A stretch of DNA of 64,000 nt from the IMG/VR virus record IMGVR_UViG_3300032038_000012, positions 71,792-135,791 of that record. One strand, given 5' to 3'. A program made the position numbers and the translations under genes. The notes under the pieces were generated by a model that searched no databases, had not been told where the DNA came from, and worked only from the letters and a program-made list of their open reading frames with translations. This stretch comes from a virus (lineage: Duplodnaviria > Caudoviricetes). This document shows positions 1 to 63,984 of the stretch, piece by piece (the stretch's first letter is position 1; the number at the start of each line of letters is the position of its first letter).

Positions 1-2
1 GA

Positions 3-1271: not shown

Positions 1272-1272
1272 T

Positions 1273-2130: not shown

Positions 2131-2142
2131 GAGGACAATTAA

Positions 2143-3489: not shown

Positions 3490-3503
3490 AAGGAGGAAAA
3501 AAA

Positions 3504-6500: not shown

Positions 6501-6791
6501 ATGGGTTGTACCGCTTGAGGAGACGGTTCTCATGCTAGCGGGTTAGCAACAATAGCGAAAAAGAATTTTCAAACTGTAATTGGAAAACACAATGATAATA
6601 AAAGTGACACTTTATTTGAAATTGGAAATGGAAGTCGTTTTGGTGGTCGTTCTAATGCATTTGAGGTTTATTCAGACGGAAGAGCTATCGTTGGGGCAGA
6701 TCCAACTACTGCAATGGGGGTTGCAACTAAACAATATGTTGATGATGCAATAGCTAGTGCTATTACTACAACTTTGAACGGAGGTTATTAA
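3504..6791 (+). CDS. YadA-head-like (SHAEG repeat) tail fibre/adhesin, 1095 aa (TGA=Trp at 4548, 5625, 5646, 6036, 6516)
   Basis: Track ORFs 3504, 4632 and 5811 share one frame. The 14-aa SHAEGxxTxASGxx repeat register runs unbroken across each TGA. Two RSNAFxVYSDG neck motifs; ends TAA 1 nt before the next ATG. Confidence 0.88.
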
Positions 6792-6792
6792 T

Positions 6793-7947: not shown

Positions 7948-8053
7948 AGGAGGTTAGTATGAAATATTATAAAGTAATGGCATAATTTTACTTTACAATA
8001 TTTTGTAGACTAATAAAAAGAAGAGAGAGATTCCTTCTTCTTCTTTTTATTTA

Positions 8054-8093
8054 GGTCTAAATAGTATAATAAAATAAAACTCTTTTTGATATA
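8054..8093 (+). promoter_or_regulatory. Putative late promoter (GGTCTAA-N21-CTTTTTGATATA)
   Basis: Same bipartite motif at 15525, 16584 and 30704(-); follows a hairpin plus T-tract. Confidence 0.55.
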
Positions 8094-8131
8094 ATTTTAG
8101 TAAGAGAGAAATGGAGATAGGAGGATTTAAA

Positions 8132-8482
8132 ATGTTTAGAGTAAGAAACAAAAATATTTACTTAAACAGAGGAGACGCCATTACTTTACAATTAGTAAAT
8201 AATGAAGGCAAATTCGAAGCTGGAGACACAATTAAATTTTATGTTTGTGCAAATGGCGACTATACAAATATTCTTTTTGAAAAAGAATTTACTGTAGAAG
8301 AAACAAGTAATTTTGCGGAAATAAAATTAACTTCTGCAGAGACTCGTATTGGAGATGCATTCAAAGATGGTTCAGTTACATATTGGTATGAAATTGAGTT
8401 AAATGGAGATACAACTCTAATTGGATATGATGATGAAGGAGCTAAAAAATTCGTTTTATATCCAGAGGCTACTACAGAGTAA
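8132..8482 (+). CDS. Small baseplate/BppU-like beta protein, paralog of 16100..16453
   Basis: NRGD..YWYEIELN..TLIGYD..G.K...L.PEA shared with the 16100 ORF; AGGAGG RBS before 8132. Confidence 0.65.
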   Translation: MFRVRNKNIYLNRGDAITLQLVNNEGKFEAGDTIKFYVCANGDYTNILFEKEFTVEETSNFAEIKLTSAETRIGDAFKDGSVTYWYEIELNGDTTLIGYDDEGAKKFVLYPEATTE

Positions 8483-8504
8483 GAAATAAAAGGAGGAAAT
8501 AAAT

Positions 8505-9188
8505 ATGGCTAAAAATACAATGGGATTTAGAGATGCTTACACTCAAACATTAGATATAGATATTTATCCTAAAGGTAATGATGGAGCCGATGGTATATCG
8601 ATAATAGATGTTGCAGTTGATAATAGAAGACATTTAATTTGCACTTTATCTAATGCTGAAGTTATTGATGCTGGAGAGGTCCCTGCACCAGAAGGAACTT
8701 TTGATGTTGAAATTATAAATTCATTACCTGCATCTGGTTCAATATCTACAATGTATTGCGTTCCACTTCCAAGTGAGCAACAAACAACAATTAAAAAATA
8801 TGAAGAATATTTTTATATTAGTAATGCTTGGGAAAAAGTAGGAACAGCTACAATAGATTTAAGCGGTTACTACACTAAAACTGAAGCTGATGCTATTACA
8901 GATGCATTAGATGATAAAATCGATCAAGAAATTGAAGATAGAGAAGCAGCTATTGCCGCGCACACTAATAGTGAAACTATTACTACTGATTTATCTGCAA
9001 AAGAATCTACTTATTATTTATTAGGAACAGAAGATGGTATTGGTAAGGGGACTGGAATTTCACAAGCTAAAACTACTGTTGAAGGTAGTGGTGTAAAATA
9101 TGAAAGTGGTAGTGAACAAGAAAATGGAAAATTATATATAGATGAAGAAAGGGTTACAACTGGATTGTACTTCACAATTTCAGAGTAG
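8505..9188 (+). CDS. Virion structural protein
   Basis: KGNDGADGISIIDV..HLICTLSN and WEKVGTATIDLSGYYTKTE motifs typical of tail fibre connectors. Confidence 0.65.
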   Translation: MAKNTMGFRDAYTQTLDIDIYPKGNDGADGISIIDVAVDNRRHLICTLSNAEVIDAGEVPAPEGTFDVEIINSLPASGSISTMYCVPLPSEQQTTIKKYEEYFYISNAWEKVGTATIDLSGYYTKTEADAITDALDDKIDQEIEDREAAIAAHTNSETITTDLSAKESTYYLLGTEDGIGKGTGISQAKTTVEGSGVKYESGSEQENGKLYIDEERVTTGLYFTISE

Positions 9189-9205
9189 AGGAGGATTAGA
9201 TAATT

Positions 9206-11458
9206 ATGTCAAAAACAATTAAATTTTATGAAGACGAATTAAAAACTAAACAAGTTTATCCTGAGATTGATCCTGAAGGAAAATATCCTGGGGTAACAGT
9301 TGGTTTAGCAGAGAACTTAACTTCTATAGATGGAGTTACTGATGGTTCATCATTCCAATATAGATCTGCTGCAAGTCATACAAGTGTGGCAACTGATGGA
9401 TATGCAGTATTAAAGAAATTACATGGAGCTAAATCAACAACTACAACAATTCCAGAAAGTATTAAATATAATTTATTAACTACTGGAGTAAAAAGTATTA
9501 CATTAACTTTAGCAACTTTTAAAACTCAAAAAAGTGAAACTGGAGTTTATAATTTTATTTATACTCCAACAATTACATATACATCAAATTTAATAAGTTC
9601 AATTAATAAAGCTACATTTGCTAGAAAAATGAATGCTGCAACAGGAACTTTTGTATTTGAGTTTGATGCAGCTATTGATTATAATGATCCATCAACAATA
9701 GTATCAAATTTTAATAAAAATACTTTTGCAAATAAAGTTTTAGGAACTGCAAATACATATGAATTTACATATGCAACAGATAATTGGTATTTAGGGACAG
9801 AACAAGTTTCTTTATCTCAATATGGATTTACTTTAAATTCAACAACACTTACAGAAGGAATGAAAATTACAGTTTATTATACTGCTAATAATTGAAAATA
9901 TGGTCAAGATGTAGTTGCATTATACCAATATGGAATTATTACAACAGGAAAAGAAAAACCTGGAAATACTATTACAATTAATTATACTGCAAATAATTGG
10001 ATGTTAGAAGATGATATTGTTACATTATCAAGTTATGGTATTTCTATTACAAATGGAGCTGCCGCAATTAATGATAACATTCAAGTTATATATCAAGCTG
10101 AAGAGGTTGGAGTAGTTCAAATAGCAAATCCAACACATTTATTATCAATAGGAATGAATCAATTCAATAAAAGAGGTAGTCAAATTTTATCTAATAGTGG
10201 GATTGATGGTAATGGAGCTATAGGAACTGTTAATGACCATTATGTTATTTGGTTTAAGTGTTTAGGTGGACAAACTTATACTATTTATGATAAAAACGAA
10301 GGTAGTATAGTTCAAGCTGCATATAGTACTGAACCTATTGCAAGTTATTCAACAGGATTAACGATTTTAACACCTGTAACAACTTCATCAGAAGGAAATG
10401 AAGTAACAACTACAACAACAAAAACTTATTATCAAACAACTAATAATGGTTATATGGCTATTGAAACTACTGATATTGAAGATTTATGTTGTCATTTAAC
10501 CTGGTCTGGGACAGAAGATAATACTTATTCAGATTATTGAGAATTTAAATTAGAAATTCCATATGAAGATAAAAATGGAAATAAGATTTCTACATATGGA
10601 TTACCTCAATTAAATGATAATGTATTTGATGAAATTGATTTAGAAAATAATAAATATTATGTTAGAGTAGGAAGAGTTGAATATACTCCTACAAATTTAT
10701 CTAATATTAGTGCTCAAACTTCTAATTATATATATGATAGTAATTGAATTTATTATAAGGCATCAAAAGAAAGAGTTTATGACTTAAAAGAAAGAGAAGA
10801 TATATATCCTTGTGCGGACTTTGGTACAGAAGAATTTTTAAATAGTGTTTTAGAATTATCCCCTACAATAATTTATCAAAACAATTTAAAAGATAAATTA
10901 AGAAGAGATGTTGAAGTTTTAGCTAATAAAACAAATGACTTATCAGATGTTTATGATTGAAATGCAACAACTATGTATCCAAGTGCAAAAGCTGTAAAAA
11001 CAATAACTAATAATATTTATGCAATGTTAGGTTTAGCTGTAAACACTTATGATAATAGTACTGTTTACTCTGCTGGGGACTATGTTGTATATGATAATAT
11101 ATTATATAAATGCGTAACAAGCTCTAGTTCTGCAGGAGGCTTGACTAGAAAACCATCTGCAGTTATTTGGGATAGTTCTAATGAAGTATTCTCAATTACA
11201 GATGAAACTACTTTACTTAATAGCGATCCTATTCAAGAACATGGTATAGGTGAGTATCAAATAAAATTACAAGCAGATTATCATGATCCAAATCATTCAC
11301 ATTATTTACAAACACTAATATGTCCTGATGGGTATGTTTATGGACCGGAAGAAGGGCTTTTCTTGAATATGGGTATTCAAACCTTAACTAATACTGGTGA
11401 AGGAAGTTTTCAAATTACAGATGGACAATGGACTAGATCTTATTTATTTAAAGCTTAA
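9206..11458 (+). CDS. Tail/baseplate protein, 750 aa (TGA=Trp at 9893, 10538, 10745, 10958), C-terminal CBM-like YSAGDYVVYDNILYKC module
   Basis: Three track ORFs in one frame joined only by TGAs; internal repeats YATDN[TGG], YTANN[TGA], YTANN[TGG]. Confidence 0.85.
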
Positions 11459-11525
11459 TTTATAGGGAGAGGGAGATAGTTCCTTCTCCTTTCTTTTAGT
11501 ATATAGAGATAAAAGGAGGATATAT

Positions 11526-12359
11526 ATGATTTTAAATATAAAACGATTTGCGCCAGAGTTAGATGAATATAATCCTGAATATAGTTATACCTATACTAAA
11601 AAAGGATATGTTGCAACAGTAGAGGTTTCTATTGAATGTGATTATGATATTTCAAGTATAGAATTAAGTCGAGGAGAAACTTTATTAGGAGATTTAGTTG
11701 ATGTAACTTCTGATTGAACTCTTTATAATGATGGGAGTTCCATTAAAAGAACTTTTACTGAACCTTGTCATGATACTTTTGTTATAAATTTTGAAAACGC
11801 TACTGTAACTGGATATGTTATAGTAAATACATCTGATGACTTTACCCCAGAAAGTGAACAATATCCAGTAGAAATTAATGGAGATATTCGAATTAGTAAT
11901 AGTGAAATTAAATTAAAAAAAGTTGCTGAAACGATTAAAGATTTAACGAATATTATTTATCCTGTTGGAAGTATATATAGAAGTACAAATGCGATAAATC
12001 CACAGAATATTTTTGGCGGAACGTGAACACAAATTACAGATGATACAATTGTTGCTTATGCAGAAATGTCTGGAACAACTTTAAATCAATCAAAAAATAT
12101 TTCTTCCATTACTGGATCTAGTACTTTTATAGTAACTTTTTCTAAAACTATGGCAAATACAAAATACAAGGTTTTTGTATCTGGAGAATGTAGTGGATTA
12201 GGAGCTGAAATTATAGGAGTTTATGGAAAAACAACAACAGGTTTTAAATTTGATTTTTGTAATTATAGTGGGACAGCAACAACTCCTACAAGTCAAAATA
12301 TTTTAGTAATAGGGCAACTTGCTAATCCTGAATATTACGAATGAAAAAGGACAGCATAG
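11526..12359 (+). CDS. Tail-tip protein with IYPVGSIY...WKR domain and LNIKRFA leader, 277 aa (TGA=Trp at 11715, 12024, 12342)
   Basis: FGGT[TGA]TQI matches FNGT[TGG]EQI in the 12817 paralog; YE[TGA]KRTA matches the WKR C-terminal motif. Confidence 0.85.
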
Positions 12360-12370
12360 GGGGTAAAAAT

Positions 12371-12814
12371 ATGATTATTAATACAGATTTAATTTATCCG
12401 ATAGGAGCAATTTATTTGTCAGTGTCACCTATAAATCCTAAAACTCTTTTTGGTGGAGATTGAGAAGCTATTTCTCAAGGAAGATTTTTACTTGGAGCTG
12501 GTTCTCCTGAAGCGAATACCGCAAATGATTTTGGAGATTTACAAAATTCAGGATATATTTTTCATGTTAATGATAGAGGCGGAGCTTATAAACATACTTT
12601 ATTAACAACTGAAATTCCTGCTCATAAACATCAAATAAAAACAAATAATGATGACTGGAATAATACTCAAAGTGGTGGTAACTATGGTACTACTAAGGAC
12701 GGAACTACCGCTTGGTATAATAATAACTGGTATACAGAGAATACTGGTGGAGGTCAAGCACATAACAATATGCCGCCTTATACAGTAGTTTATATGTGAA
12801 AGAGGGTGGCTTAA
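12371..12814 (+). CDS. Short tail-tip/baseplate Gp10-C-like protein, 147 aa (TGA=Trp at 12461, 12797); missing from ORF track
   Basis: MIINTDLIYPIGAIY..FGGD[TGA]EAISQGRFLLGAG..IPAHKH..HNNMPPYTVVYM[TGA]KRVA. Confidence 0.88.
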
Positions 12815-12816
12815 TA

Positions 12817-13737
12817 ATGAAAAAATTAAATATGAAAAGATTTGCAACTCCAGATCCGGGTTCAGATACTTTTGAAATAACTGTTCATTATACAGAAAAT
12901 TATAACCAAGCAGGTTATTGTAATAGTGTAACCGTATTAGTAACATCTAGTATAGCTATGGCAAGTGTAGAAAGAAATGGAGTGGATGTTGCAGAAGAAT
13001 GGAACGCAGAATTTCCTACAACTACAATTCAAAAAATTTATACTGAAAACACAACTGAAACCTTAACTTTTTCAAGTAGATATGGTGAAGAAATAACACA
13101 AACTATTGATATTATTTCAATAGATGCTCAAAGTGTTATTGGAGCAGATCCAGCAATAGATGCAAATATAAAAATTAATCCAGATATAAAAATAGAAAAA
13201 TTATCTTTAAAAGAAATAGATGAAACTGTAAGCACTTTGTTTGATTTAATTTACCCTGTTGGCTCTATTTATTATACAAATAATGCTAATTTTAGTCCTA
13301 ATGTAAGTTTTAATGGAACATGGGAACAAATTAAAGATGTATTCTTACTTGCGGCAGGAGATACTTACGTTGGTGGAACTAGCGGCGGAGACACCAACAC
13401 GGGCGCTGCTTCAGGTAATACTGGTGCTGCAACCGGAAATACAGGTTCAACTACCTTAACTGTCGATCAAATACCAGCGCATACCCATAAAGTAAAAAGA
13501 AATAATAATTATTCAAATAATTTCATGATAGATACTGGTAAGACTAATCAATGGGGTAGTGCTATAATAAATACATCAGGATATACGGCACAATCAATGG
13601 GCATTACCATTGAAAATACGGGCGGCAGTAAAGGTCATACACATACACTAAACTCACACACTCACACCTTAAACGATCATACCCACACCAATATGCCCCC
13701 TTATATTGTAGTTTATGTATGGAAGAGGGTGTCGTAA
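12817..13737 (+). CDS. Tail-tip protein (LNMKRFA leader, beta domain, IYPVGSIY...HTH...NMPPY..WKRVS)
   Basis: His-rich HTH tip repeats and Gp10-C-like termini; start moved to ATG 12817, just after the upstream stop. Confidence 0.8.
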   Translation: MKKLNMKRFATPDPGSDTFEITVHYTENYNQAGYCNSVTVLVTSSIAMASVERNGVDVAEEWNAEFPTTTIQKIYTENTTETLTFSSRYGEEITQTIDIISIDAQSVIGADPAIDANIKINPDIKIEKLSLKEIDETVSTLFDLIYPVGSIYYTNNANFSPNVSFNGTWEQIKDVFLLAAGDTYVGGTSGGDTNTGAASGNTGAATGNTGSTTLTVDQIPAHTHKVKRNNNYSNNFMIDTGKTNQWGSAIINTSGYTAQSMGITIENTGGSKGHTHTLNSHTHTLNDHTHTNMPPYIVVYVWKRVS

Positions 13738-14420
13738 TGAAAAAAAGAATGAAATTAAATATTTTAAGATTTTCAACCAGTGCTGAAGAAAATATAGACA
13801 TAAAAATTAATGCAGATTTAAAAATAGAAGGAACAGATAGAAAATTAAAAGATATTGATTTGTCATTAACCCATCTTATAGATATTCTCAATTCTCAATG
13901 TGATATTGGAGGATTATATGAAACAACAGATAGTGCTGTCGATCCTAATACTTTTTTACCTGGCACTTGGACATTATTAAGTTCTAATGTTATTGACACT
14001 GGATGGCAAAATTTTTCTTGGACTAATTCTACATATATAGGAACATCACAATCTAGTTATACTCTTAATAAATGGCGTATAACAGATAATGTTTTACACG
14101 TTGTAATAGGTGTAGGATGTACATCTACTATTAACCATGGTAACGAAGATGAAATTGCTAGAGTCCCTATTGCAAACAGTGGATTGAATGAAAGTGCAAC
14201 AAGAATATGGACGGGTGCCGTTGGTGGATCTGGATGTGTGGCAGGTTTCATTTTAAAAGAAACTTCAAATGGTGTGACAGTTGGAATAAAACCTCATACA
14301 TCTTCTACTTTTGCTACAGCTCCTTGGTATTCAACTTATTTTACTTATCCATTACCAAGTAATTTTGTTTTTAAAAGCGGTAATTATAAAAGAAAATATA
14401 TTTGGGAAAGAACAAATTAA
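13737..14420 (+). CDS. Tail-tip protein (LNILRFS leader, inserted beta receptor-binding-like domain)
   Basis: TAATG overlap with the upstream stop; paralogous N- and C-termini (IKINADLKI, PGTW, YIWERTN). Confidence 0.75.
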   Translation: MKKRMKLNILRFSTSAEENIDIKINADLKIEGTDRKLKDIDLSLTHLIDILNSQCDIGGLYETTDSAVDPNTFLPGTWTLLSSNVIDTGWQNFSWTNSTYIGTSQSSYTLNKWRITDNVLHVVIGVGCTSTINHGNEDEIARVPIANSGLNESATRIWTGAVGGSGCVAGFILKETSNGVTVGIKPHTSSTFATAPWYSTYFTYPLPSNFVFKSGNYKRKYIWERTN

Positions 14421-14436
14421 GAAGGAGGGTTAAAAA

Positions 14437-14883
14437 ATGAAAATTAATGTAGATTTTATTTATCCTATTGGATCTGTTTATATTAGTACTGAATCTATAA
14501 ACCCTTCTGTTTTATTTGGAGGGGTTTGGAAACAGACTGCAAAAAGTAGAGCTATTGTAGGAGCAGGGGCAAATATAGCTAACACAAATACAACTTATGG
14601 TTCTTTATCTGCGGGAACGTTAAATTTTACAGCTGGCACCCTTATGGGAGAATCAACACATACACTATCTATTCAAGAAATACCATCACATTCTCATGAT
14701 TTAACTGTACATTCAGGAGGAACTACAGCAGCTCCTATAGGTGGAGTAGCAAATACCGCAAATGCTTCAGGCAGTGGTCTACTAACAGATGCTAGGTGAA
14801 AAATACAAAATACTGGTGGAGGACAAGCTCATAATAATATAATGCCTATTGAAGTGTATTATATATGGAAGAGGGTGTCGTAG
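14437..14883 (+). CDS. Short Gp10-C-like tail-tip protein, 148 aa (TGA=Trp at 14797)
   Basis: Readthrough restores NTGGGQAHNNIMPIEVYYIWKRVS, matching the 12371 paralog. Confidence 0.85.
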
Positions 14884-15488
14884 TGAAAAAGTTAAATATT
14901 AAAAGATTTGCAGTTGATGATAATGCAAATATAAAAATTAATGATGAATTGAAACTTGGAACAAGTGGTATATCATTAGCAGATTTAGTAGTAATGAAAG
15001 GTTTCTTTGATATGTTTCATTTTGAAACTAAAACTTTTGGCGGAGCTACTTGGTTAAAGGTTTATTATACAAATAGTAAAAATGGAACTGTTTTATGGAA
15101 AGATATAGATGAATTAGGTTTTAGTTTGCAGGCTTATAAATGGTCTATATTGGGGATGCTTCCATATTTTTATAATAATACTTGGAAATATGAGTTCTTA
15201 TTAGAGTATCCGTCTTTAGGAAAATATAATAGATGGCGTCAAACAAGTAATCCATTATTGGCAGATCAATCTGTTTCTGGTTATAGTGCAGTAGATATTT
15301 CTATGACACAAAATAATTGGGGCGGATTAGCATTATCAAGTACAAAAGGAACCTCTTGTATTATAGATGGCTCACCTGGAGCAACAACTTGGTATTATGC
15401 AATAGGACAACAAGCTGCTTATCAAGGTGGAATTCCTGCCAATGATCCTAGTGTTCAAGAGGTTTATTTATGGATTAGAATAGGTTAA
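14883..15488 (+). CDS. Tail-tip protein with LNIKRFA leader and Trp-rich (fibrinogen-C-like?) domain
   Basis: GTG start overlaps the upstream TAG; GGATWLKVYY..KYEFLLEYP..NRWRQTSNP..WYYAIG; domain call is tentative. Confidence 0.65.
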   Translation: MKKLNIKRFAVDDNANIKINDELKLGTSGISLADLVVMKGFFDMFHFETKTFGGATWLKVYYTNSKNGTVLWKDIDELGFSLQAYKWSILGMLPYFYNNTWKYEFLLEYPSLGKYNRWRQTSNPLLADQSVSGYSAVDISMTQNNWGGLALSSTKGTSCIIDGSPGATTWYYAIGQQAAYQGGIPANDPSVQEVYLWIRIG

Positions 15489-15495
15489 TATAAAT

Positions 15496-15521
15496 GAGAT
15501 GTGGAAACACATCTCTTTTTT
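15496..15521 (+). terminator. Rho-independent terminator
   Basis: GAGATGTG-gaaa-CACATCTC then T6; near-identical copy at 16553. Confidence 0.85.
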
Positions 15522-15524
15522 ATT

Positions 15525-15566
15525 GGTCTAATATAGAAAATACAAATTAGTGTCTTTTTAAATATT
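15525..15566 (+). promoter_or_regulatory. Putative late promoter (GGTCTAA...CTTTTTAAATAT)
   Basis: Directly after a terminator, upstream of the holin-like gene. Confidence 0.55.
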
Positions 15567-15606
15567 TTTAGAAGAGGGAATATTATAGGAAGAAAGGAGT
15601 TATGAT

Positions 15607-16119
15607 ATGGGACAACTATTAGCTAAATATACTATTACTGAAATTGTTGTATTTTTAGTTCTTTTAGGATTTGCTATTAAAGAGGTTGTTACTTTTTTTG
15701 ACTGAGCTCATAACAGACTTAGAAAAACTTTTAATAAAGAAGATGAACATGAAGAAATTAAAGAACAATTAGAAACAGTTGTAAATCGTTTAAATGATAT
15801 TGAAACACATTTTAACACAATGATAAACGAAAGTCGAGTAAAATATACTGAAATGCAACAATCAATAGATTTATTAATATCGTCAGACAAGGATGATATT
15901 AAAGCCTGGATAACAGCGCAACATCATTTATTCGTTTATGAATATAAATGTATAGATGATTATAGTTTAGATTGTATTGAGAAAAGATATTCTCATTACA
16001 AAGATGAAGGCGGAAATAGTTTTATTGAATTATTAATGAGCGAAATCCGCGCATTGCCTAAAGTGTCTGTTCTACCAGAGCAGGAAGGAGTAGAGAAAAA
16101 TGTTGAAGATAAAAGATAA
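15607..16119 (+). CDS. Holin-like membrane protein, 170 aa (TGA=Trp at codon 33, 15703)
   Basis: AAGGAG RBS; N-terminal TM (IVVFLVLLGFAI), coiled coil, C-terminal YKDEGGNSF motif; in frame with track ORF 15820. Confidence 0.7.
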
Positions 16120-16453
16120 AACAAATTTATGCTTCAACCGCGGTGACGAAATTTATTTAACTATTACTCTTGTAAATGAAACGTTTAAAGCTGGAGATAA
16201 AGTTCAAATGAATATAGTTGAAAAAGAACATTATGAAAATGTTTTATTCACAAAAGATTTTACTGTTGAAGAAGAAGGTGCTTCATATGTTATACACTTA
16301 ACATCTGATGAAACTAGATTTGGAGAGACATTAACAAAAAGAGGAAAAAATTATTGGTATGAAATCTCATTAAATGATATTACACTAATTGGGTATGATG
16401 CAATGGGGCCTAAAATATTATCACTTTTCCCTGAGGCAGAGGTGTCTGAATAA
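16100..16453 (+). CDS. Small baseplate/BppU-like protein, paralog of 8132..8482
   Basis: Shared NRGD, ETR.G and YWYEI.LN motifs. Confidence 0.65.
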   Translation: MLKIKDKTNLCFNRGDEIYLTITLVNETFKAGDKVQMNIVEKEHYENVLFTKDFTVEEEGASYVIHLTSDETRFGETLTKRGKNYWYEISLNDITLIGYDAMGPKILSLFPEAEVSE

Positions 16454-16552
16454 TGGATAAAATTTGTGTAAAAATAGAACCACAAAAAGATATAAAAGTC
16501 ATTTTATCTGTGGGACAAAATGGAAACGTTAACCAATAAAATCTAAATAATA

Positions 16553-16580
16553 GAGATGTGATTTTCACATCTCTTTTTTT
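16553..16580 (+). terminator. Rho-independent terminator
   Basis: GAGATGTG-atttt-CACATCTC plus T7. Confidence 0.85.
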
Positions 16581-16583
16581 ATT

Positions 16584-16625
16584 GGACTAATTAAAGCAAT
16601 ATAAATGACTACTTTTTTATATATT
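16584..16625 (+). promoter_or_regulatory. Putative late promoter (GGACTAA...CTTTTTTATATA)
   Basis: Same motif and context as 8054 and 15525. Confidence 0.55.
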
Positions 16626-16659
16626 TTTAGAACAGAGAGAAAAAAGGAGTGTGAATTAA

Positions 16660-18315
16660 ATGGCAGCAACAAATGCTTTATATCCAGCATTAATAGAAAC
16701 ATATATGCCCGCTTTTTTAATTGACAGTGGAGACACAGAAAAAGATATTTGTAAAGTTTATTTTTCTATATCTCAATATAATAGTATTGGTGATATTGCT
16801 AATGCACAAGTTTCAGTAAGAAATCAAAATACTAATTTATCAGTATTAAATAAAGCACAATATCCTTGTGAAGTTATGGTAACTAATATTTATACAGATG
16901 AAACAGTTACAACTGATTATAAATATTATGTAAAAATTAGAAAAACAGATATGGAAAATAATAACTTTAAAATAGATGAATATTATAAGGTACAAATTAG
17001 ATTTACAGATACTCAGGCTAGTCCTCTTCCTCAAGGAATGACACCTCCGCAAAAGATTGATAGCTGATTAGTTAGCAATTTAGATCATTTTTCAGAATGG
17101 TCAAGTGTTTGTTTAATTAGGGGCATTTCTAAACCAAGTTTAGACTTATTAGATTGGGATCCTGAAGAAACAAGAGATATAGATTGAAGTATTCAAAATA
17201 CTCAAATAAATGGTTCTTTAACTTTTACAGATGCTAATGAAAATGAAACATTAAAAAGTTATAGAATTAAACTATATGATAGTGAAGATAATTTATTAAC
17301 TGATAGCGGAGATATTTTTACAAGTAATTATAACAATGTAAATACTATTAGTTATACTTTTAAATATAATTTTAAAGTAGATACTTCTTATTATTATACT
17401 TTTGAATATACAACTCAAAATCTTTATTCAGAGATTTTTACTTATAATTTTAGAATGATACAAGGAAATACTCAATCTTATAATTTACTTTTAACAGGGT
17501 ATATCCGCCCTGAAGATGGAAATATAGATATTCAAGTTAGAAGAAGTACAGACCAAACCCCAGTATCAGGAAATATTGTTATTAGAAGAAGTTCTAGTAA
17601 AGAGAATTTTACAATATGGGAAGATATTCATACAGAAAGTATTTTAAATGTTCAAGAGGTAGATATTACATGGTCTGATTTTACTGTTGAAAGTGGAGTA
17701 TGGTATAGTTATTGTGCTCAAGTTGTATTACCAGATGGAACAAGAGGTAAAATAACTGAAATTGCAAAACCTGTTATGATTGTTTTAGATGATATATTTC
17801 TAACAACCGCAGAAAGACAATTAAAAGTAAAATTCAATCCATCATTAAGTTCAATTAAAAGAAATATTAATGAAACAAGAACTGATACTATTGGTTCTCA
17901 ATTCCCTTTCATAAAAAGAAATGGAGATATGAACTATGTTTCATTTCCTATTGGAGGACTTATATCTTCAGAGATGGATGAAAATAGAAAATTTACTTCT
18001 AAAACTGAATTGTATGGAGATAATAGAAATTTCTATCAAGAGTATAATGAACAATATGAAATCAATAGACATTCAGATGTAGTATATGAAAGAGCTTTTA
18101 GAGAGGCGGTTATGGATTTCTTATACTCAGGAGAGGTTATGTTATTTAGATCTCCAACTGAAGGAAACTACTTAATTAGAATTATGGATTTAAGTTTCTC
18201 ACCAGAAACTACTTTAGGCAGACGTCTTTGGTCATTTAGCGGAACTGCTTATGAAATAGATTCTTGTTCTATTGACAATTATGATACTTATAAAATTATT
18301 GAAGGAAGATACTAA
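16660..18315 (+). CDS. Virion/baseplate (distal tail-like) protein, 551 aa (TGA=Trp at 17065, 17185)
   Basis: Track ORFs 16660 and 17455 are in frame, interrupted only by TGAs; FSEWSSVCLIR and LFRSPTEGN motifs. Confidence 0.8.
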
Positions 18316-27162: not shown

Positions 27163-27588
27163 CTATCTAGTTAACACAAGTCTTTTTTCTTTATATTCTG
27201 GTTTTATGACTTTTATTCCATGACTTGTATACATATCGTCATAGTGGGCTTCAAATCATAATAACATTTCTCTTATTCTTTTTAAGTTTTCAATATTTAC
27301 TTCTCCCCTAAGATTTTCTTCAACCATTTCTTTTGTTATTTCTAAAAAAATTTCTCTATCAACTCTTTCAATGGTATGCAAATAATTATGGGATGTATCT
27401 TGATTTAATATTGCTCCATTTCATTTTACATACCCATCTCCTAAACCTTTTCTTTTACAATCTTTACGAGGAACAATAAGGTGATGAAAACTAAGCTCAT
27501 TGACATTTTTAAATGTGTATCCCATAAAATCATAACCAAGTTTTTTTAATTCATACTCTTTTACCATTTCTTTTGTAACTGCTCTCAA
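27163..27588 (-). CDS. HNH-like protein, 141 aa (TGA=Trp at 27421-23 and 27256-58)
   Basis: AGGAGG plus TTG start; readthrough gives LSFHHLIVPRK..GYVKWNGAILNQDTSHNYLH, ending at TAG 27163. Confidence 0.72.
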
Positions 27589-27642
27589 ATTAACCCTCCT
27601 AAAACACAAAAAAGGCTAAGTTTAAAAAACTTAGCCTCCTTT

Positions 27643-54221: not shown

Positions 54222-54722
54222 TTAAAAATCAAAAATTTTGCTTGAGAAACAGAAATCTTTATGATTTTCAAAAATCTTTTCTAATTTTGCCTGATTTTTT
54301 GATGCTACCGCATCTGCTATTTCATTACCAAGTATTCCCGCATGTCCTGGAACACCTCTTACTATAAAGTTAGGAAAATCAATACACGCAAAAGGATATA
54401 AAGTTTTTACTAACTCTATATTTTCTACTTCTTTTTTCTTACTATTTAACCAGTTATTTCCCGCCCAAGTATGAATCCAACTATTAAACATATTCACACA
54501 ATAGGCAGAATCAGAATATATCTCAACTTCTTGGTCTTTATAATCTGTGGTAGCTAGGTTAAGTGCCCATATGAGCCCCTTTAATTCTGCTTGATTATTA
54601 GTAATATTTTCATATTGTTTACCATAAGTTGTTATTAGTTTATTTTTAGTAGTTACTGCCACTCCAAATCCACCTTCACCAGGGTTTCCGCGGCTACTAC
54701 CATCACAATATATTTTAATCAT
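54222..54722 (-). CDS. rnhA: Ribonuclease HI
   Basis: YCDGS..NPG, TNNQAEL, SDSAY, GHAG..GNEIAD. Confidence 0.93.
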   Translation of the reverse strand: MIKIYCDGSSRGNPGEGGFGVAVTTKNKLITTYGKQYENITNNQAELKGLIWALNLATTDYKDQEVEIYSDSAYCVNMFNSWIHTWAGNNWLNSKKKEVENIELVKTLYPFACIDFPNFIVRGVPGHAGILGNEIADAVASKNQAKLEKIFENHKDFCFSSKIFDF

Positions 54723-54785
54723 TTTTATCACCTTTATTTCATTATATTATATATTTTATAAAAAATCAAATAAAAAACAGAGGAT

Positions 54786-55400: not shown

Positions 55401-55997
55401 TTAATAGAACCAAGGCTGTCCGCCTATGGAATTATCTAACGCAATCTTTTTCTCTTTTACATCTTCTACTATTTGCTCAAGAGAAACTGGTTTGTTATCA
55501 TGAGCATCTAAACATACGCAATACATATATGGATTGTCTGAATAAAACTTAGTTTGTTGGTGCGTATGCCCATAAATGTTTACCATATGTTTAGCCCATG
55601 GCTTATCGTCATCATAGTTTGCGGTAATTGTTGGATAATGTGATAGCCATACGTGGTATTTCCCGAACTTTTTTCTTAAAGCACAATCAATAGATACAAC
55701 ATTTGGACATTGACTATAAAGTTCTATGCGGGTATCTGTATCATGATTTCCAATTAGAATATGTATTCTACCATTTAATTGTTTTAAGCATTCAAGACCG
55801 TGTTCATTATCTCCTAACATAACGTCCCCAAGATGATAAACTTCATCATCAGGGCCAATAATAGAATTCCAATTCTCAATAATTGCGGTATCATGCTCTT
55901 CAGAGTTAGCAAATCCGCGAGGCCCGAAAAGAAACTCTTTTTGGTGTCCAAAATGAGTATCACTTGTAAACCAGATTTTTCTTTCTAAAGAATCCAT
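55401..55997 (-). CDS. Calcineurin-like metallophosphoesterase
   Basis: SDTHFGH, LGD, GNHD, SHYP, GHTH. Confidence 0.9.
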   Translation of the reverse strand: MDSLERKIWFTSDTHFGHQKEFLFGPRGFANSEEHDTAIIENWNSIIGPDDEVYHLGDVMLGDNEHGLECLKQLNGRIHILIGNHDTDTRIELYSQCPNVVSIDCALRKKFGKYHVWLSHYPTITANYDDDKPWAKHMVNIYGHTHQQTKFYSDNPYMYCVCLDAHDNKPVSLEQIVEDVKEKKIALDNSIGGQPWFY

Positions 55998-56503
55998 TCT
56001 TTATTTGCCTCCGCTTCTAAATCTATAATAGTTTCTTTTCCATTTTCTATAATATGAAGATATTTTACTCCTTCGGACCAAGTTGGTTTTTCTAATCGTC
56101 CAAACATTTGTATAATACTTTGTTCTGGGACTTTTTCTATACCTTTTCTAAGAGCATTATATTTTAAACAAACTTCTACAGGTGTATTTAACCAAATTAC
56201 ATGGATTTCTTCTGGTTGAATGTGCAAAGATGTAATTAATTTTCTTCTTGCTCTTGAATCTAAAGATGTTTGATCTGCATATACATTATTATGTGTTTTC
56301 AAATTTTTTTCAATAGTGTCAATAAATTCTTGATACACTTGTTTTTCTTTTGAAAAATAAGGTTCATTAGGATTAACCCATCCAAACCTAATTCTGTCTC
56401 TTGAAACATAAGCATCTGTATCTTTCATATGATGTTGACACCAAGTTGATTTTCCTGATCCAGGAATGCCCATCATAATATATAATTTACTCATTTCCAT
56501 CAA
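55985..56503 (-). CDS. Polynucleotide kinase-like P-loop kinase (AAA_33)
   Basis: GIPGSGKST, SRDRIR, DQT, R..VP. Confidence 0.85.
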   Translation of the reverse strand: MMEMSKLYIMMGIPGSGKSTWCQHHMKDTDAYVSRDRIRFGWVNPNEPYFSKEKQVYQEFIDTIEKNLKTHNNVYADQTSLDSRARRKLITSLHIQPEEIHVIWLNTPVEVCLKYNALRKGIEKVPEQSIIQMFGRLEKPTWSEGVKYLHIIENGKETIIDLEAEANKEWIL

Positions 56504-56855
56504 ACTCCTTTTTTATCCTATGACCACAATCATTTGAAAAATCTGAATTCCAACATTTACCATTTTTATTATAAGGGCAATCTTCTTTTGAGCAGCTTAA
56601 AAGTTCATTAATTTCATAACGGTTACCCTCTACAAATCTTCCTGCTTCAAATTCTTCTCTAAAAGTTTCATAGGTATAATTATCATTTTCTTTTATCTCT
56701 GCGTGATTTGTTTCTTCACCACAATAAATACAATATAGTTTCTTCAAATGTCCACCTTTTCTTTCTTGACCTTTTTTACGGTGAACAGGAAGTCCTTCTT
56801 TTCCGCATTTAGTGCAGAAAAATCTACTAGTCTTCATCTGAAATGTTTTCGGCAT
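56487..56855 (-). CDS. Zn-ribbon protein with bL33-like N-terminal domain
   Basis: FFCTKCG..RKK..HLKKLYCIYCGEETNHAEIK parallels the L33 CxxC..LKKYCxxC..HxE pattern. Confidence 0.65.
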   Translation of the reverse strand: MPKTFQMKTSRFFCTKCGKEGLPVHRKKGQERKGGHLKKLYCIYCGEETNHAEIKENDNYTYETFREEFEAGRFVEGNRYEINELLSCSKEDCPYNKNGKCWNSDFSNDCGHRIKKEFDGNE

Positions 56856-57048
56856 CGTCAATTACCTCCTCTGTTTCAGACATTTCAATGTAACTATCTT
56901 CATCTTGAAAACATCTTCTAAGATAGTCTTTTCCGCCATCAACTGAGACATTTCCGCAAGAACAAGTTACAAAATCATGACGATGAACAGATTCGATAAT
57001 ATCGCCACACTTTAAACACTTCACTGCGTTCTTAATTATCTTATTCAT
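56827..57048 (-). CDS. Small Zn-binding protein
   Basis: CLKCGDIIES.HRHDF.TCSCG.VSVDGG. Confidence 0.75.
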   Translation of the reverse strand: MNKIIKNAVKCLKCGDIIESVHRHDFVTCSCGNVSVDGGKDYLRRCFQDEDSYIEMSETEEVIDDAENISDED

Positions 57049-57141
57049 AATTATCATTTCCTTTCTTTTATATTTTACATATATATTATATCATAATTTT
57101 TTATAAAAATAAAATTACCGCTTTATAAGGCGGTAATCTTA

Positions 57142-58413
57142 CTATTGATGGTATTTAATTAAGAATTCGTTAGATACAGCTTTAAAGCTTTCTCTACCAT
57201 CTAGGGTTCTTAATACAACTCCTTCTCTCATTTCTCCATCTAATTGCGATATGCCATCTGCATATGCAACCATTTCATCACAAGTTTCTGGTAAAATAAA
57301 ATGTTCATCTAATATAGGAACGCAAGGAATATTATATGTATTTACTAATATTTCTGTCATTTCTCTTGGGTTTAATCTTTTTGTTGTTCCATCTTTATAT
57401 CCAAATATTAAATTAAATGCTGCAAAATCAACATCTGCTCTTCCATAATCCCTATTTTGAACTTTATTACCATAAGTTTCTCCTTGTATAGTTACAAAAA
57501 CAAATTCTTTATGTGTGTCTAATATATTTCTTAACACTTCTTCGGCATTATATTTTTCAGCCATTTCAGTATAAACATTTGTTTCATAATAACATTTTTT
57601 ATCAGGTTTATCAAAACATACATTTCTTGAACATACATAAAAATCAAATTTCTTTCTTCCTAATCTTTTCATAGTAAATGTAGTTGAAGTTCCATCTATT
57701 TTTTCAGTGACCATCCATTCTTTTTCTGGATCTCCAGGGAATAGAAATGGCATATTTTGAACTCTTTCTTCATCTGTTTTAACTACCCATGCAGGCCAAC
57801 CGCGAGTATCTCTTTTCTTTCCTAAGAAAATAAATAAGAATTTTTTACCCCAAGTGTATTTATATAATGTTCTTAAAAATTTATGTGCTTTAAATAATTT
57901 TAAATGTCTTTGATACATTCTCATATATTTATCAATATTTGCTTTTCTTTTATTATCTTCTATTACTGAATAAATAACACCTAATTCTTCTGTTAGAGGT
58001 ATATTTATATATTCATCGCCTGGTAGTTCATGCAGCTTAGCTACGTTCCAACCTATTTGAATTGCGGAAATACAAGCAGGCATACCTCCATTTTCACAAA
58101 AATCTCCAAGAGCCATAAGTAAACCTTGAGATACAAAGTTTCCTTTTCCTCCAAAAGTATATTTTTGAGTTTTTATTTTATAGTGTTTAGAGGCTAAAAA
58201 CTCTGACCACTGTCTTTCAGGTAGTTTACTATCTATTTCAAAATAAACAGCTATATCACCTGGCTTAAAAGTACCTTTTCTAGTCATTATATGCCATCCA
58301 CCTACTATCGCACATTCACAATTATCTGAACCTTCAATAGGCTTTATGTCATCAATTTTTACAGTATAGGCAAGTTCTCTTTGTTTTGTTTTTGGGTTTA
58401 ACATATTTTTCAC
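57142..58413 (-). CDS. ATP-dependent RNA ligase (Rnl2/DRB0094-like)
   Basis: N-terminal VYFEIDS domain; TEKIDGTS, QGE, REGVV, FKAVSNEFL. Confidence 0.9.
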   Translation of the reverse strand: MKNMLNPKTKQRELAYTVKIDDIKPIEGSDNCECAIVGGWHIMTRKGTFKPGDIAVYFEIDSKLPERQWSEFLASKHYKIKTQKYTFGGKGNFVSQGLLMALGDFCENGGMPACISAIQIGWNVAKLHELPGDEYINIPLTEELGVIYSVIEDNKRKANIDKYMRMYQRHLKLFKAHKFLRTLYKYTWGKKFLFIFLGKKRDTRGWPAWVVKTDEERVQNMPFLFPGDPEKEWMVTEKIDGTSTTFTMKRLGRKKFDFYVCSRNVCFDKPDKKCYYETNVYTEMAEKYNAEEVLRNILDTHKEFVFVTIQGETYGNKVQNRDYGRADVDFAAFNLIFGYKDGTTKRLNPREMTEILVNTYNIPCVPILDEHFILPETCDEMVAYADGISQLDGEMREGVVLRTLDGRESFKAVSNEFLIKYHQ

Positions 58414-58457
58414 TTCTCCTTTTTATTTATTATATAATAATTTTTTGGAATTATCAA

Positions 58458-59150
58458 CTATTCTACAAAGTATATGGGTTCTAGTGTATCCAAATCTAAT
58501 AATGCAATTTTCTTTGATACAAAAGTAGCTAAATCTAAATCTATTTTATGTTGATGACAATATTTACAAATAGTTATAGATTTTTTACCTTCTAATTCCT
58601 TCACTCTTGTTTGCAGGTATTGAACAGGTGAATGTCCATGTACTATATAAGTATCTTCATCTCCATCCCATTCTGTTTCAGTTAAATGATTGCGGTTCCA
58701 GATGAAATCCGCAGGTCTATCACTTAATAAGTCTTTAAAACTAAATCCAGAATGTGATAAATAAATTTTTTTATTATCCTTATTTATATATAATGTTTTA
58801 TAAACAGTTTTTGTTTTTAAATTATGAATTAATTCTTCTTGCTCTTGTTCACTGAGAGCTTGAAAAGCTCGAAGTGTTACTAGCGTTTCATTTTCTGTAA
58901 TTATACTTTTTTGTGTTAATAACGCCATATTAATATCTTTTACATAATCTAAAAACATATCTTCGTGATTACCTATTATATAAGTAACTCTTTTATCTTT
59001 AAATAATTCTTGCATAATTCTAATTCCATCTGGACCGCGATCAATCGCATCTCCTAGAAAGAATATTTCATCATCTTCTTTACAATAATTTTTTATGGCT
59101 AACCATAAGTTATAGTTGCCATGAATGTCAGTAAAAGCATATTTAGCCAT
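58458..59150 (-). CDS. PPP-family Ser/Thr phosphatase-like metallophosphoesterase
   Basis: TDIHG, LGDAIDRGPD, GNHE, HGHSP. Confidence 0.9.
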   Translation of the reverse strand: MAKYAFTDIHGNYNLWLAIKNYCKEDDEIFFLGDAIDRGPDGIRIMQELFKDKRVTYIIGNHEDMFLDYVKDINMALLTQKSIITENETLVTLRAFQALSEQEQEELIHNLKTKTVYKTLYINKDNKKIYLSHSGFSFKDLLSDRPADFIWNRNHLTETEWDGDEDTYIVHGHSPVQYLQTRVKELEGKKSITICKYCHQHKIDLDLATFVSKKIALLDLDTLEPIYFVE

Positions 59151-59388
59151 ATAAATCATCTCCTTTTTTAAATACTACATATATTATATAATGATTTTTT
59201 TATAAAATCAATTAATCATTTCCGCACTCAAGCAAAGAAACCTTTTTGATTTTTTTCATATTTTATTATAAAATTGTTTTAGAAATTTGAAAAGCACAAA
59301 ATTCACTAAGGACTTTTTAAAGTTTCTTATTTTATTTTTTACAAAAATTATAATATAATAATAATGTAAAAAGAAAGGAGAGGGAATT

Positions 59389-62319: not shown

Positions 62320-62348
62320 TTGACTTTCGTAAAAAATAATGATATAAT
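62320..62348 (+). promoter_or_regulatory. SigA-type promoter TTGACT-17-TATAAT for the hsp20-tRNA transcript
   Basis: Near-consensus. Confidence 0.8.
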
Positions 62349-62432
62349 ATAAGTATGAAAAAGGTAAAGAACCTTTTCCATATATATTATGTTTGTGCGT
62401 CAAAGTTGTTTTTTACGAAAGGAGATTTTAGT

Positions 62433-62831
62433 ATGTTTGATTTTGATTTTGATGATATTTTTACACCAATTTTACTAGATTGGGACAAGAAAAATTACAG
62501 ATTTAATAGAGGAGAAAAAGATATGCATCCATATTCAATTTCCTCAGATGAAGAAAAGACAATTATTGTTCACAATGTTTTAGGTATTAACAAGGAAGAT
62601 TTGAAAGTAACAAAAGAGAAGGAAAATGGAACGACTTATATTGCAATAGAAGGTAAAACAAAAGATAGCCTAACAAAAAGAGAATACTCAGTCAGTTCAA
62701 GATTTGCATTAAATGAAGAGGAGTTAGACCTTTCTAACATCAAATCTAGTATGAGAAATGGGTTACTATACATTATTATTCCAGCAAAAAAACCTGAAAA
62801 ACCAACTAAAGATACAATAGAAATTCTATAA
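62433..62831 (+). CDS. Small heat-shock protein (Hsp20/alpha-crystallin)
   Basis: VLGINKEDLKV, IKSSMRNGLLYIIIP, C-terminal IEI motif. Confidence 0.85.
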   Translation: MFDFDFDDIFTPILLDWDKKNYRFNRGEKDMHPYSISSDEEKTIIVHNVLGINKEDLKVTKEKENGTTYIAIEGKTKDSLTKREYSVSSRFALNEEELDLSNIKSSMRNGLLYIIIPAKKPEKPTKDTIEIL

Positions 62832-62881
62832 TAAAATAAAATAAACATATTGTTTTTTATCTTTGATGCACAAGCGTCATT

Positions 62882-62956
62882 GCACCCTTAGCCAAGTTGG
62901 TAAGGCAACGGACTGCAACTCCGTGATCGCTGGTTCAAATCCAGCAGGGTGCTCCA
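62882..62956 (+). tRNA. tRNA-Cys(GCA)
   Basis: GCACCCT/AGGGTGC acceptor, ACGGA-CTGCAAC-TCCGT, GGTTCAAATCC, U73, CCA encoded. Confidence 0.95.
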
Positions 62957-62957
62957 T

Positions 62958-63010
62958 GCCAACATAAAGAGAGCCTTCCCGCGGCGTTGGTGTTTTTACT
63001 AATCTCTTTA
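62958..63010 (+). ncRNA. Minimal HDV-like (theta) self-cleaving ribozyme
   Basis: P1 GCCAAC/GTTGGT with G1-U wobble, P2 TAAAGAGA/TCTCTTTA, P3 GCC/GGC, L3 TTCCCGC, no P4, J4/2 CTAA (catalytic C 62999). Confidence 0.85.
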
Positions 63011-63014
63011 AAAC

Positions 63015-63395
63015 GGGGCGATACTGCAAACAGTCTCTCCGGAGACTATGATTTTAAACTCAAGCTAGGTAGTAGTGAAAAGAGAACCCCTAGTGAGAAC
63101 CAACAATCTTTTCACAATCAGATTTAGTAACATTCTTTTTAACCCTAAAGATACAAACAGCGAAAAAGGTATCTAATCAATTTTGTGACTCTGTATCTTG
63201 AGTTTTAAGGAAGTTTAATCACTGTAAATGGACTGACAAGATAGAAAGGTCTATTTGTTCATTAGAATTATTTAAGATATGTTAGTCTTTGACTTGAACG
63301 GGGAAAACGTTCCTCATTGACGGGCTCCTCTTAGTATTTTTAAGTAGTTCTATTGTTACAAAAAGCATAGGGTAACCGCCTATGATGAGGAAAAT
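63015..63395 (+). ncRNA. Unidentified structured RNA candidate
   Basis: No credible ORF; several nested and crossing helices (see findings). Confidence 0.45.
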
Positions 63396-63575
63396 TTATA
63401 TATTTTATGGAATTAAAAATAAGAAAAGGATGGGGCAAGCGATTATAAAAACATATCAAAGATTTTGATACTACCATAAGATGCTTGTTATACGAAATCT
63501 GATTTTCTTTATTGATTTTAATTAAAAATTTTAATATAATATATATGTAATAAAAAAGAAAGGGAGTATTCGAAT

Positions 63576-63806
63576 ATGGCAAAAAGAAAAGGTAAATCAG
63601 GTAGCGGAGAAGGATATTATATTATTACTCAAGCTAACCTAGATAAAAAAGGAAAAACAAATAAGAAATTAAAAAGAAATCCTATGGCATCTAAATATCT
63701 TACTGCCAGAGGCAAAGAAATTATAGAGGCGGCTGCAGCTTTTGCTAAAGAACATCCAGCAGGAAGTGGTCGTAGAAACAAGAAAGATGAAAGCAAAGCC
63801 GCTTAA
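63576..63806 (+). CDS. Small highly basic protein
   Basis: Promoter 63512-63540, RBS, Lys/Arg-rich. Confidence 0.7.
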   Translation: MAKRKGKSGSGEGYYIITQANLDKKGKTNKKLKRNPMASKYLTARGKEIIEAAAAFAKEHPAGSGRRNKKDESKAA

Positions 63807-63895: not shown

Positions 63896-63984
63896 GCAGA
63901 AGTAACTCAATTGGAAGAGTGTGGGCGTACGCAATCTTAACAACCAGGACACGTGAGTTGTTGGTTCGAATCCAACCTTCTGCA
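63896..63984 (+). tRNA. tRNA-like element with non-canonical anticodon region
   Basis: Perfect acceptor (GCAGAAG/CTTCTGC), D and T arms; the 39-nt middle has no canonical anticodon stem. Confidence 0.6.

Follow-up and report, generated by a model that had tools for sequence, protein, structure and literature searches.

Genome and locus

Here, we describe a tRNA-associated ribozyme locus in a Caudoviricetes phage of the bovine (cattle) gut, whose genome of 135,791 bp has direct terminal repeats and a CheckV completeness of 100%. The DNA analysed is a 64,000-nucleotide stretch of this genome (the window); its sequence is present in bovine-gut DNA runs at 0.95-0.97 of sampled words and in RNA runs too, and the bovine-gut runs that carry it come from 14 studies. 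Tail-fibre and baseplate domains are encoded, indicating a tailed phage of the animal gut, as are the carriers of theta ribozymes. The following features lie at the locus:

62320-62348, + strand, sigma-70-like promoter (TTGACT, 17 nt, TATAAT, with TG before the -10; 11/12 matches)
62433-62831, + strand, Hsp20/alpha-crystallin gene (hsp20), upstream of the tRNA-Cys gene (Pfam PF00011, E=3.7e-9)
62882-62956, + strand, tRNA-Cys(GCA), discriminator U62953, CCA (62954-62956) encoded (ARAGORN; Rfam RF00005, 68.7 bits)
62958-63010, + strand, minimal HDV-like (theta-type) ribozyme of 53 nt (sequence, descriptor, covariation, covariance models)
63011-63472, + strand, non-coding RNA (ncRNA) with the ribozyme at its 5' end (alignments, model matches, RNA contigs)
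63143-63213, + strand, conserved 5' domain of the ncRNA, with a covarying outer helix
63310-63316, + strand, invariant UUCCUCA hairpin loop of the ncRNA, anti-Shine-Dalgarno-like (alignments)
63512-63540, + strand, promoter of the next unit (TTGATT, 17 nt, TATAAT), conserved in all relatives
63896-63984, tRNA-shaped gene (Rfam tRNA, 45.6 bits)

The hsp20 ATG at 62433 is preceded by the ribosome-binding site AAAGGAG, and the listed ORF starts at 62355. Across the genome ends runs a tRNA array of at least 25 tRNAs plus a phage-encoded tmRNA that lies inside the array (genome C1:987-1411, outside the window) and is likewise found in relatives L012, L032, L038, L041, L048 and L054. CCA is encoded in 24 of 25 scanned tRNAs (23 by a script test, plus a tRNA-Met with CCA one base further on). 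The tRNA-shaped gene at 63896-63984 has good acceptor, D and T arms and a 34-nt region in place of the 17-nt anticodon arm; ARAGORN needs the intron option to report it and then calls it Lys(ctt), a 6-nt insert included. A blastn search of 62700-63600 against 50,697 phage records gave no match.

Ribozyme fold

The ribozyme is made up of these elements, preceded by a single-nucleotide spacer:

62957, + strand, spacer U at position -1, with the predicted scissile bond at 62957/62958
62958-62963 (GCCAAC) and 62986-62991 (GUUGGU), + strand, P1, 6 bp, with G62958·U62991 as first pair
62964, + strand, J1/2, A (1-2 nt depending on the parse)
62965-62972 and 63003-63010, + strand, P2, 8 bp (7 bp in the Kienbeck field format)
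62973-62975 (GCC) and 62983-62985 (GGC), + strand, P3, 3 bp
62976-62982, + strand, L3, UUCCCGC, 7 nt with U as first base
C62978-G62992 plus U62977·U62993, + strand, P1.1, one Watson-Crick pair
62993-62998, + strand, UUUUUA, filling the position of the absent P4 (from the sequence)
62999-63002, + strand, J4/2, CUAA, with C62999 at the catalytic position

In the sequence and the descriptor parse these elements form a nested double pseudoknot, in which P1 crosses P2 and P3 is nested in P1. The exact parse agrees with an earlier note on this DNA, which had described a complete nested double pseudoknot with a G1-U wobble in P1, P2, P3, L3 UUCCCGC, no P4 and CUAA. The P1.1 mini-helix of HDV-like ribozymes normally has two pairs; here C62978-G62992 is the sole Watson-Crick pair, in line with the single-G P1.1 candidate of that note. 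The 7 nt between P1 and J4/2 consist of a 2-nt P1.1 field and a 5-nt L4. In the notation that Kienbeck et al. (2024) use for their fields, the element reads GCCAAC, AT, AAAGAGA, GCC, T, TC, CCGC, GGC, GTTGGT, GT, TTTTA, CTAA, TCTCTTT, and in the accessible part of the supplementary entries of that paper the P1.1 partner GT is the one field that lacks a published counterpart. For the 53 nt, the minimum-free-energy fold (z = -1.69) is uninformative because pseudoknots are outside the energy model.

Relatives, covariation and model searches

Relatives were gathered in two ways. A query with the small protein encoded at 63576-63803 yielded 31 syntenic loci, and an IMG/VR scan with a pattern consisting of the P3/L3 core, G and CTAA, the only search in which P1 and P2 were left unconstrained, yielded 30 loci. 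Nineteen of these 30 parse as full HDV-like ribozymes, and 4 more do if a longer J4/2 is allowed; the P1 and P2 sequences of the 19 differ widely yet still pair. At 8 of these loci, in unrelated phages, G1 comes immediately after the last base of tRNA-Thr, tRNA-Trp or tRNA-Ser.

Five distinct related phages retain the arrangement of tRNA-Cys-CCA, 1-2 nt and ribozyme; at L032/L033, L048, L047 and L054, a ribozyme of the same type stands 1-2 nt behind a CCA-encoding tRNA-Cys(GCA). At L012/L052 a second tRNA-like element ending in CCA-U stands between tRNA-Cys and the ribozyme. G1 lies 1-2 nt after a CCA end in 6 of 8 distinct loci, these included. This element (L012 2411-2479, equivalent to L052 ~1936-2004) is about 70 nt long, has an acceptor-like stem, a T arm and the CCA end, is without a normal D or anticodon arm and is missed by the Rfam tRNA model; the predicted ribozyme cut falls 1 nt after its CCA.

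Sixteen distinct ribozymes, that of the window and those of 15 relatives, were aligned; the alignment has 100% standard pairs in P1, P2 and P3, with both sides changed in 11 of 18 pairs; since the members were chosen by a scan that requires pairing, the complete pairing is partly built in, while the compensatory variety is not. Covariation scores 0.677, where shuffled partners give 0.195 and slid partners 0.07-0.12. Invariant in the alignment are G1·U (16/16), two bases of L3 (its first U and its G), the C-G pair of P1.1 and the C of J4/2.

Both strands of the whole 135,791-bp genome were scanned with our own descriptor (G1, P1 of 6-7 bp, P2 of 6-8 bp, P3 of 3 bp, U as the first L3 base, one or more P1.1 pairs, and J4/2 C..A), by which 62958-63010 is the only site with the catalytic C. 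With another base at the catalytic position, the strict scan gave no A or U parse and one G parse (63224-63287), which is AT-rich, is not conserved as a ribozyme in relatives and was taken as a chance control. When the genome was shuffled forty times with its dinucleotides preserved, each shuffled genome had on average 0.1 sites, and a chance site would further need to land a few bases from one of about 27 tRNA ends. Relaxed descriptors yield hundreds of matches; even so, among the ARAGORN tRNAs of the phage a ribozyme is found only at tRNA-Cys, with no second one near any other tRNA of the genome. An AT-rich parse after tRNA-His, which the relaxed descriptor returned, appears with the control base too and was rejected.

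Rfam 15 gave no match to the HDV family or any other ribozyme in 62850-63560, even at E<=10, and its HDV-family models gave none in seven related loci at E<=0.1. Because Rfam models fail on P4-less forms of this sort, two covariance models (P1+P3 and P2+P3) were built from the 15 relatives with the window sequence excluded. Their scores for 62958-63008 are 57.8 bits (E=5.6e-11) and 59.8 bits (E=1e-12), with 13-22 bits for the runners-up; across the window and the complete genome no other match goes above 22 bits. The earlier note had called for a covariance-model search, in which the relatives-built models matched at 58-60 bits and the HDV-family models of Rfam gave no match. The fold, the cut position and the minimal HDV-like/theta class given in the note are upheld by the covariation, the independent covariance models and the conserved synteny.

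tRNA-Cys and stop-codon recoding

G1 lies 1 nt after the CCA of tRNA-Cys and 4 nt after the discriminator, inside the theta criterion of +/-5 nt of a tRNA 3' end. The predicted cut 1 nt after the CCA, between U62957 and G62958, was read in the same way in the earlier note, and in relatives it falls 1-2 nt after the CCA.

Long ORFs with in-frame TGA, open only under TGA read-through, occur only in a + strand block at 1-18300, which encodes tail-fibre, YadA-head, CBM and baseplate Gp10 domains (for example 3483-6788, 1102 codons with 5 TGAs, and 9200-11455 with 4 TGAs); a solved-structure search with one TGA-containing ORF gave no match. The long - strand ORFs at 22769-59174 have no TGA past the first dozen codons, except for an HNH-type ORF at 27166-27615. 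The description of the phage as TGA-recoded is therefore supported in part, for the late genes on the + strand at 1-18300. The presumed UGA suppressor lies outside the window:

genome C1:8971-9066, tRNA(UCA), 96 nt, next to tRNA-Trp

The earlier note had also attached meaning to the tRNA-Cys anticodon being one base from UCA. Since the phage has its own suppressor tRNA elsewhere, without a ribozyme, and L038 and L041 have the ribozyme without a tRNA, this remark is unsupported. ARAGORN labels the tRNA(UCA) 'SeC'; it is always close to tRNA-Trp(CCA), and its 96 nt suggest a long extra arm, which would set it apart from ordinary suppressors of the Trp type. A tRNA(UCA) is also present in L034, L035, L037, L038, L041, L042 and L046, and L034, L035 and L037 additionally carry a tRNA(CUA).

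Transcription and the downstream RNA

A + strand promoter search found no other good promoter from 62320-62348 to 63512. As 62320-62348 is the only strong upstream promoter on the + strand, hsp20, tRNA-Cys, ribozyme and ncRNA probably form one transcript. Downstream, the ribozyme-ncRNA unit is bounded by the promoter at 63512-63540, which belongs to the next unit (the small ORF 63576-63806 with the tRNA array).

RNA contigs were taken from four bovine-gut metatranscriptome runs of four studies. Each run has one hsp20 contig, with its 5' side at 62386, 62417 or 62595 and its 3' side at 62803-62879, and a separate ncRNA contig of similar depth that starts at 62964, 62969, 62970 or 62975, 6-17 nt past the predicted cut. 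The ncRNA contigs (~500 nt) end at 63432, 63467 and 63474, and at 63695 in the fourth run, placing the 3' end of the ncRNA at ~63432-63474. The tRNA-Cys region has no own-phage cover in the contigs of the four runs, which says nothing either way. The contigs are a weak hint of a discrete, fairly abundant RNA whose 5' end coincides with 62964 or slightly precedes it, which is what a 62957/62958 cut would predict, and an RNA 5' end near 62958 in vivo is weakly indicated; contigs cannot prove an RNA end, and a protein RNase cut at the tRNA 3' end gives the same picture.

In run X20 (depth ~700), a contig joins 62879, plus an extra A, head-to-tail to 62386, and the contig of a second run also begins at 62386. 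These two positions lie 3 nt (62386) and 2 nt (62879) outside a 17-bp long-range helix (62389-62405/62861-62877) that brackets the hsp20 ORF. The junction may reflect a template-switch artefact of reverse transcriptase or, given the RNA ligase of the phage, a circular or concatenated hsp20 RNA.

From 63011 to the promoter at 63512-63540 there is no conserved ORF, and no Rfam family matched the ncRNA, either at the gathering threshold or at E<=10. The outer helix of its 5' domain is AAGAUAC/GUAUCUU in the window and AAGAAG/CUUCUU, AAGAGA/UCUCUU or AAGAAAC/GUUUCUU in relatives, whose alignments also contain a long-range helix. Between the ribozyme and the conserved core of the ncRNA, the window has an extra insert of about 130 nt (63011-63142).

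Of the matches of a model of the 5' domain, 9 of 9 lie at ribozyme-bearing loci, always just downstream of the ribozyme; the model has no match in the other syntenic loci, and in new IMG/VR contigs it finds the same clade and chance matches only. The ncRNA is known from about 9 IMG/VR contigs, which all belong to one clade and are no independent replication, so that its co-occurrence with the ribozyme may be shared descent. In L038 and L041 the order is hsp20, 40 nt, ribozyme and ncRNA, without a tRNA (the gene upstream of the ribozyme in L038 is an hsp20 homologue), and the ribozymes of the two differ at four positions with the fold unharmed. The ribozyme is thus tied to the ncRNA no less tightly than to tRNA-Cys.

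Comparison with known ribozymes

Theta ribozymes (Kienbeck et al., 2024, Nat Commun, PMC10879173) share the plan of the window element: a 6-bp P1 starting from G, a short J1/2, a P2 of 7-8 bp, a 3-bp P3, a 7-nt L3 starting from U, no P4, a short L4 and the catalytic C at the start of J4/2 CUAA. Also shared are a cut that falls no more than 5 nt to either side of a phage tRNA 3' end and an animal-gut phage with a reassigned stop codon in its late genes and a DRB0094-like RNA ligase (PMC10879173). The window element is a further theta ribozyme, real and fairly ordinary of its kind. It differs in having a P1.1 of C-G plus U·U, whereas P1.1 is Watson-Crick or G·U in the accessible part of the published entries; in a partner tRNA that encodes CCA and is cut 1 nt past it, whereas only 4.5% of published theta partner tRNAs encode CCA (PMC10879173); in the recoding of TGA, whereas the published link is to TAG (code 15) and code 4 genomes make up ~6% of tRNA-associated theta cases (PMC10879173); in having tRNA-Cys rather than a suppressor tRNA as partner; and in its tie to a conserved downstream ncRNA, with survival without a tRNA in two relatives. 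The accessible portion of the supplementary entries contains neither the exact ribozyme nor the sequences of its relatives, and no Cys, GCA or TCA rows.

Among minimal drz ribozymes (drz-Mtgn of the human microbiome, Riccitelli et al., 2014; Kienbeck Supplementary Data 4), which are P4-less double pseudoknots as well, uvig_490047 shares the L3 fields T, TC, CCGC and uvig_475923 the L4 TTTTA; as far as these entries were accessible, they differ by a two-pair P1.1 (TC/GA or GC/GC). The drz ribozymes of Supplementary Data 4 are classed as isolated (not beside a tRNA), and the paper gives isolated ones no role (PMC10879173). The mammalian CPEB3 ribozyme, which is active, has the same P1.1 make-up and the same type of L3/P3 core (PMC4836649); it differs in its P4 helix, its intron location and the lack of a tRNA link, which confines the likeness to the core. 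A P4 stem is also absent from the 5' HDV-like ribozyme of silkmoth R2 (PMC3774820). R2 and L1Tc are eukaryotic mobile elements with large J1/2 inserts, whereas the RNA released here would be a phage ncRNA with no sign of mobility.

In the accessible set of about 240 published theta and minimal-drz entries, P1.1 is always Watson-Crick or G·U (CC/GG, TC/GA, TC/GG, GC/GC, GC/GT, AC/GT). One of them is the GG version of the IMG/VR ribozyme L001, which has GT; the published RNArobo descriptor thus probably does not accept the U·U subtype, as far as the accessible entries reflect it. In IMG/VR the core occurs most often with U·U (19 of 23 true matches), most relatives conserve this form, and the P1.1 of the active CPEB3 ribozyme is likewise one G-C plus U·U (PMC4836649). 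By analogy, a ribozyme of this subtype is likely active and may be slower. A common natural subtype with a one-pair P1.1 appears to be absent from the published lists, in so far as these were accessible, and the published counts may be underestimates.

Modest novelty lies in the U·U subtype of P1.1, in a cut placed 1-2 nt beyond a CCA that the tRNA gene itself encodes, and in the link with a conserved, expressed ncRNA that persists without a tRNA. Theta ribozymes would then also serve CCA-encoding tRNAs, where a predicted cut 1-2 nt beyond the CCA implies a further healing or trimming step, and a ribozyme kept without a tRNA before a conserved, expressed ncRNA suggests a testable role for theta ribozymes away from tRNAs. 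The general picture of HDV-like ribozymes is unchanged, and the value of the case is incremental.

Probable function of the ribozyme

On the observed fold, conservation, covariation, uniqueness in the genome, position and ncRNA linkage, we put at roughly 0.78 the probability that the element at 62958-63010 cleaves itself as a minimal HDV-like (theta-type) ribozyme. Its cleavage is predicted from the chemistry of the HDV family, whose members leave 2',3'-cyclic phosphate and 5'-OH ends; four theta ribozymes self-cleave in vitro, with C-to-U knockouts used (PMC10879173). Most likely the ribozyme both frees the tail of the tRNA and makes the front end of the expressed ncRNA. This double role had been suggested in the earlier note, and it fits the conserved ncRNA that always stands behind the ribozyme and the RNA contigs that start at 62964-62975. 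More tentatively, and at less than even odds in our estimate, the conserved partner of the ribozyme may be the clade-specific, abundantly transcribed, structured ncRNA of ~0.5 kb and not the tRNA, the ribozyme making and capping its 5' end. If true, this would give a role to the 'isolated' theta ribozymes left unexplained in the 2024 paper.

A ribozyme selected only as a 5' processing or stabilising element of the ncRNA, with tRNA-Cys as a passenger, would account for L038 and L041, which keep ribozyme and ncRNA without a tRNA and whose four ribozyme differences are structure-neutral, for an ncRNA 5' domain seen only behind a ribozyme (9/9, and none in new contigs), for the lack of a ribozyme at any other ARAGORN tRNA of the genome, and for an ncRNA as abundant as hsp20 mRNA in the RNA contigs; the R2 and L1Tc retrotransposon ribozymes, which free RNA from an upstream co-transcript, offer an analogy. 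We nevertheless regard it as unlikely. The contigs are of one clade and their co-occurrence may be shared descent, the placement of G1 1-2 nt after a CCA in 6 of 8 loci, the tRNA-like element of L012/L052 included, is a precision hard to explain for a passenger, and the same subtype lies directly after other tRNAs in unrelated phages without the ncRNA.

Trimming of the tRNA 3' trailer is the standard theta role, 58% of theta occurrences being tRNA-associated, and the cut lies inside the +/-5 nt window (PMC10879173). That the ribozyme does this and nothing else, the RNA behind it being a discarded trailer or an intergenic leader, is improbable, as the downstream RNA is conserved, has covarying helices and forms a ~500-nt contig in four RNA studies, and the ribozyme persists without a tRNA in L038 and L041.

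The single Watson-Crick pair of P1.1 raises the case of a fold that is catalytically dead, or too slow in vivo, and serves as a stable 5' stem while host RNases make the RNA ends, and the RNA contigs do not separate a ribozyme cut from an RNase cut. Across 16 sequences whose helices vary freely, however, G1·U, the catalytic C and two L3 bases (U and G) never change, as expected of an active site under selection, U·U is the commonest subtype of the IMG/VR core (19/23) and CPEB3 is active with the same P1.1 (PMC4836649), all of which makes a dead fold very improbable. The reading of the site as a loose-motif match that arose by chance in AT-rich DNA, for which the control parse with G at 63224-63287 and the hundreds of relaxed-descriptor matches speak, is refuted as far as computation goes by E-values of 1e-11 to 1e-12, 0.1 sites per shuffle, placement at a tRNA end and compensatory changes.

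With the ribozyme active and serving both RNAs, the hsp20 promoter would give one RNA comprising hsp20 mRNA, tRNA-Cys, ribozyme and ncRNA, in which the 53 nt would fold into the nested double pseudoknot, and C62999 and Mg2+ would catalyse attack of the U62957 2'-OH on the 62957/62958 bond. The upstream product would be tRNA-Cys-CCA-U with a 2',3'-cyclic phosphate, and the downstream product a 5'-OH RNA of ~515 nt, headed by the folded ribozyme and ending shortly ahead of the 63512 promoter. The 5' end of the tRNA would come from RNase P, and host exonucleases or the phosphoesterase/kinase/ligase set of the phage would remove the extra U and the cyclic phosphate; a cyclic phosphate one base past the CCA requires such assumed extra healing steps, which counts against this pathway. 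The phage set is encoded as an end-healing and sealing cluster (55401-59159, - strand) that could process ribozyme-made ends:

55401-55997, - strand, Metallophos_2 phosphoesterase, calcineurin-like (Pfam)
55985-56503, - strand, PNK-like P-loop kinase (Pfam)
57142-58413, - strand, RNA ligase, PF09414 with PHA02142 OB fold (Pfam; NCBIfam)
58458-59159, - strand, Metallophos phosphoesterase, calcineurin-like (Pfam)

The best NCBIfam match of the RNA ligase is TIGR02306 (DRB0094 RNA ligase), at 84 bits and below the cut-off; the DRB0094 RNA ligase family is 140-fold enriched in theta-carrying phages (PMC10879173). By tblastn, the RNA ligase has only relatives of <30% identity, in phages of unrelated hosts. 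If the ncRNA is indeed the conserved partner, the cyclic-phosphate and 5'-OH ends could be substrates of this kinase, phosphoesterase and RNA-ligase cluster, and the head-to-tail hsp20 RNA junction of one run hints that such ligation may occur on this transcript. The cluster also contains a gene for a small Zn-ribbon protein, and it is adjoined by an RNase H gene (54225-54746).
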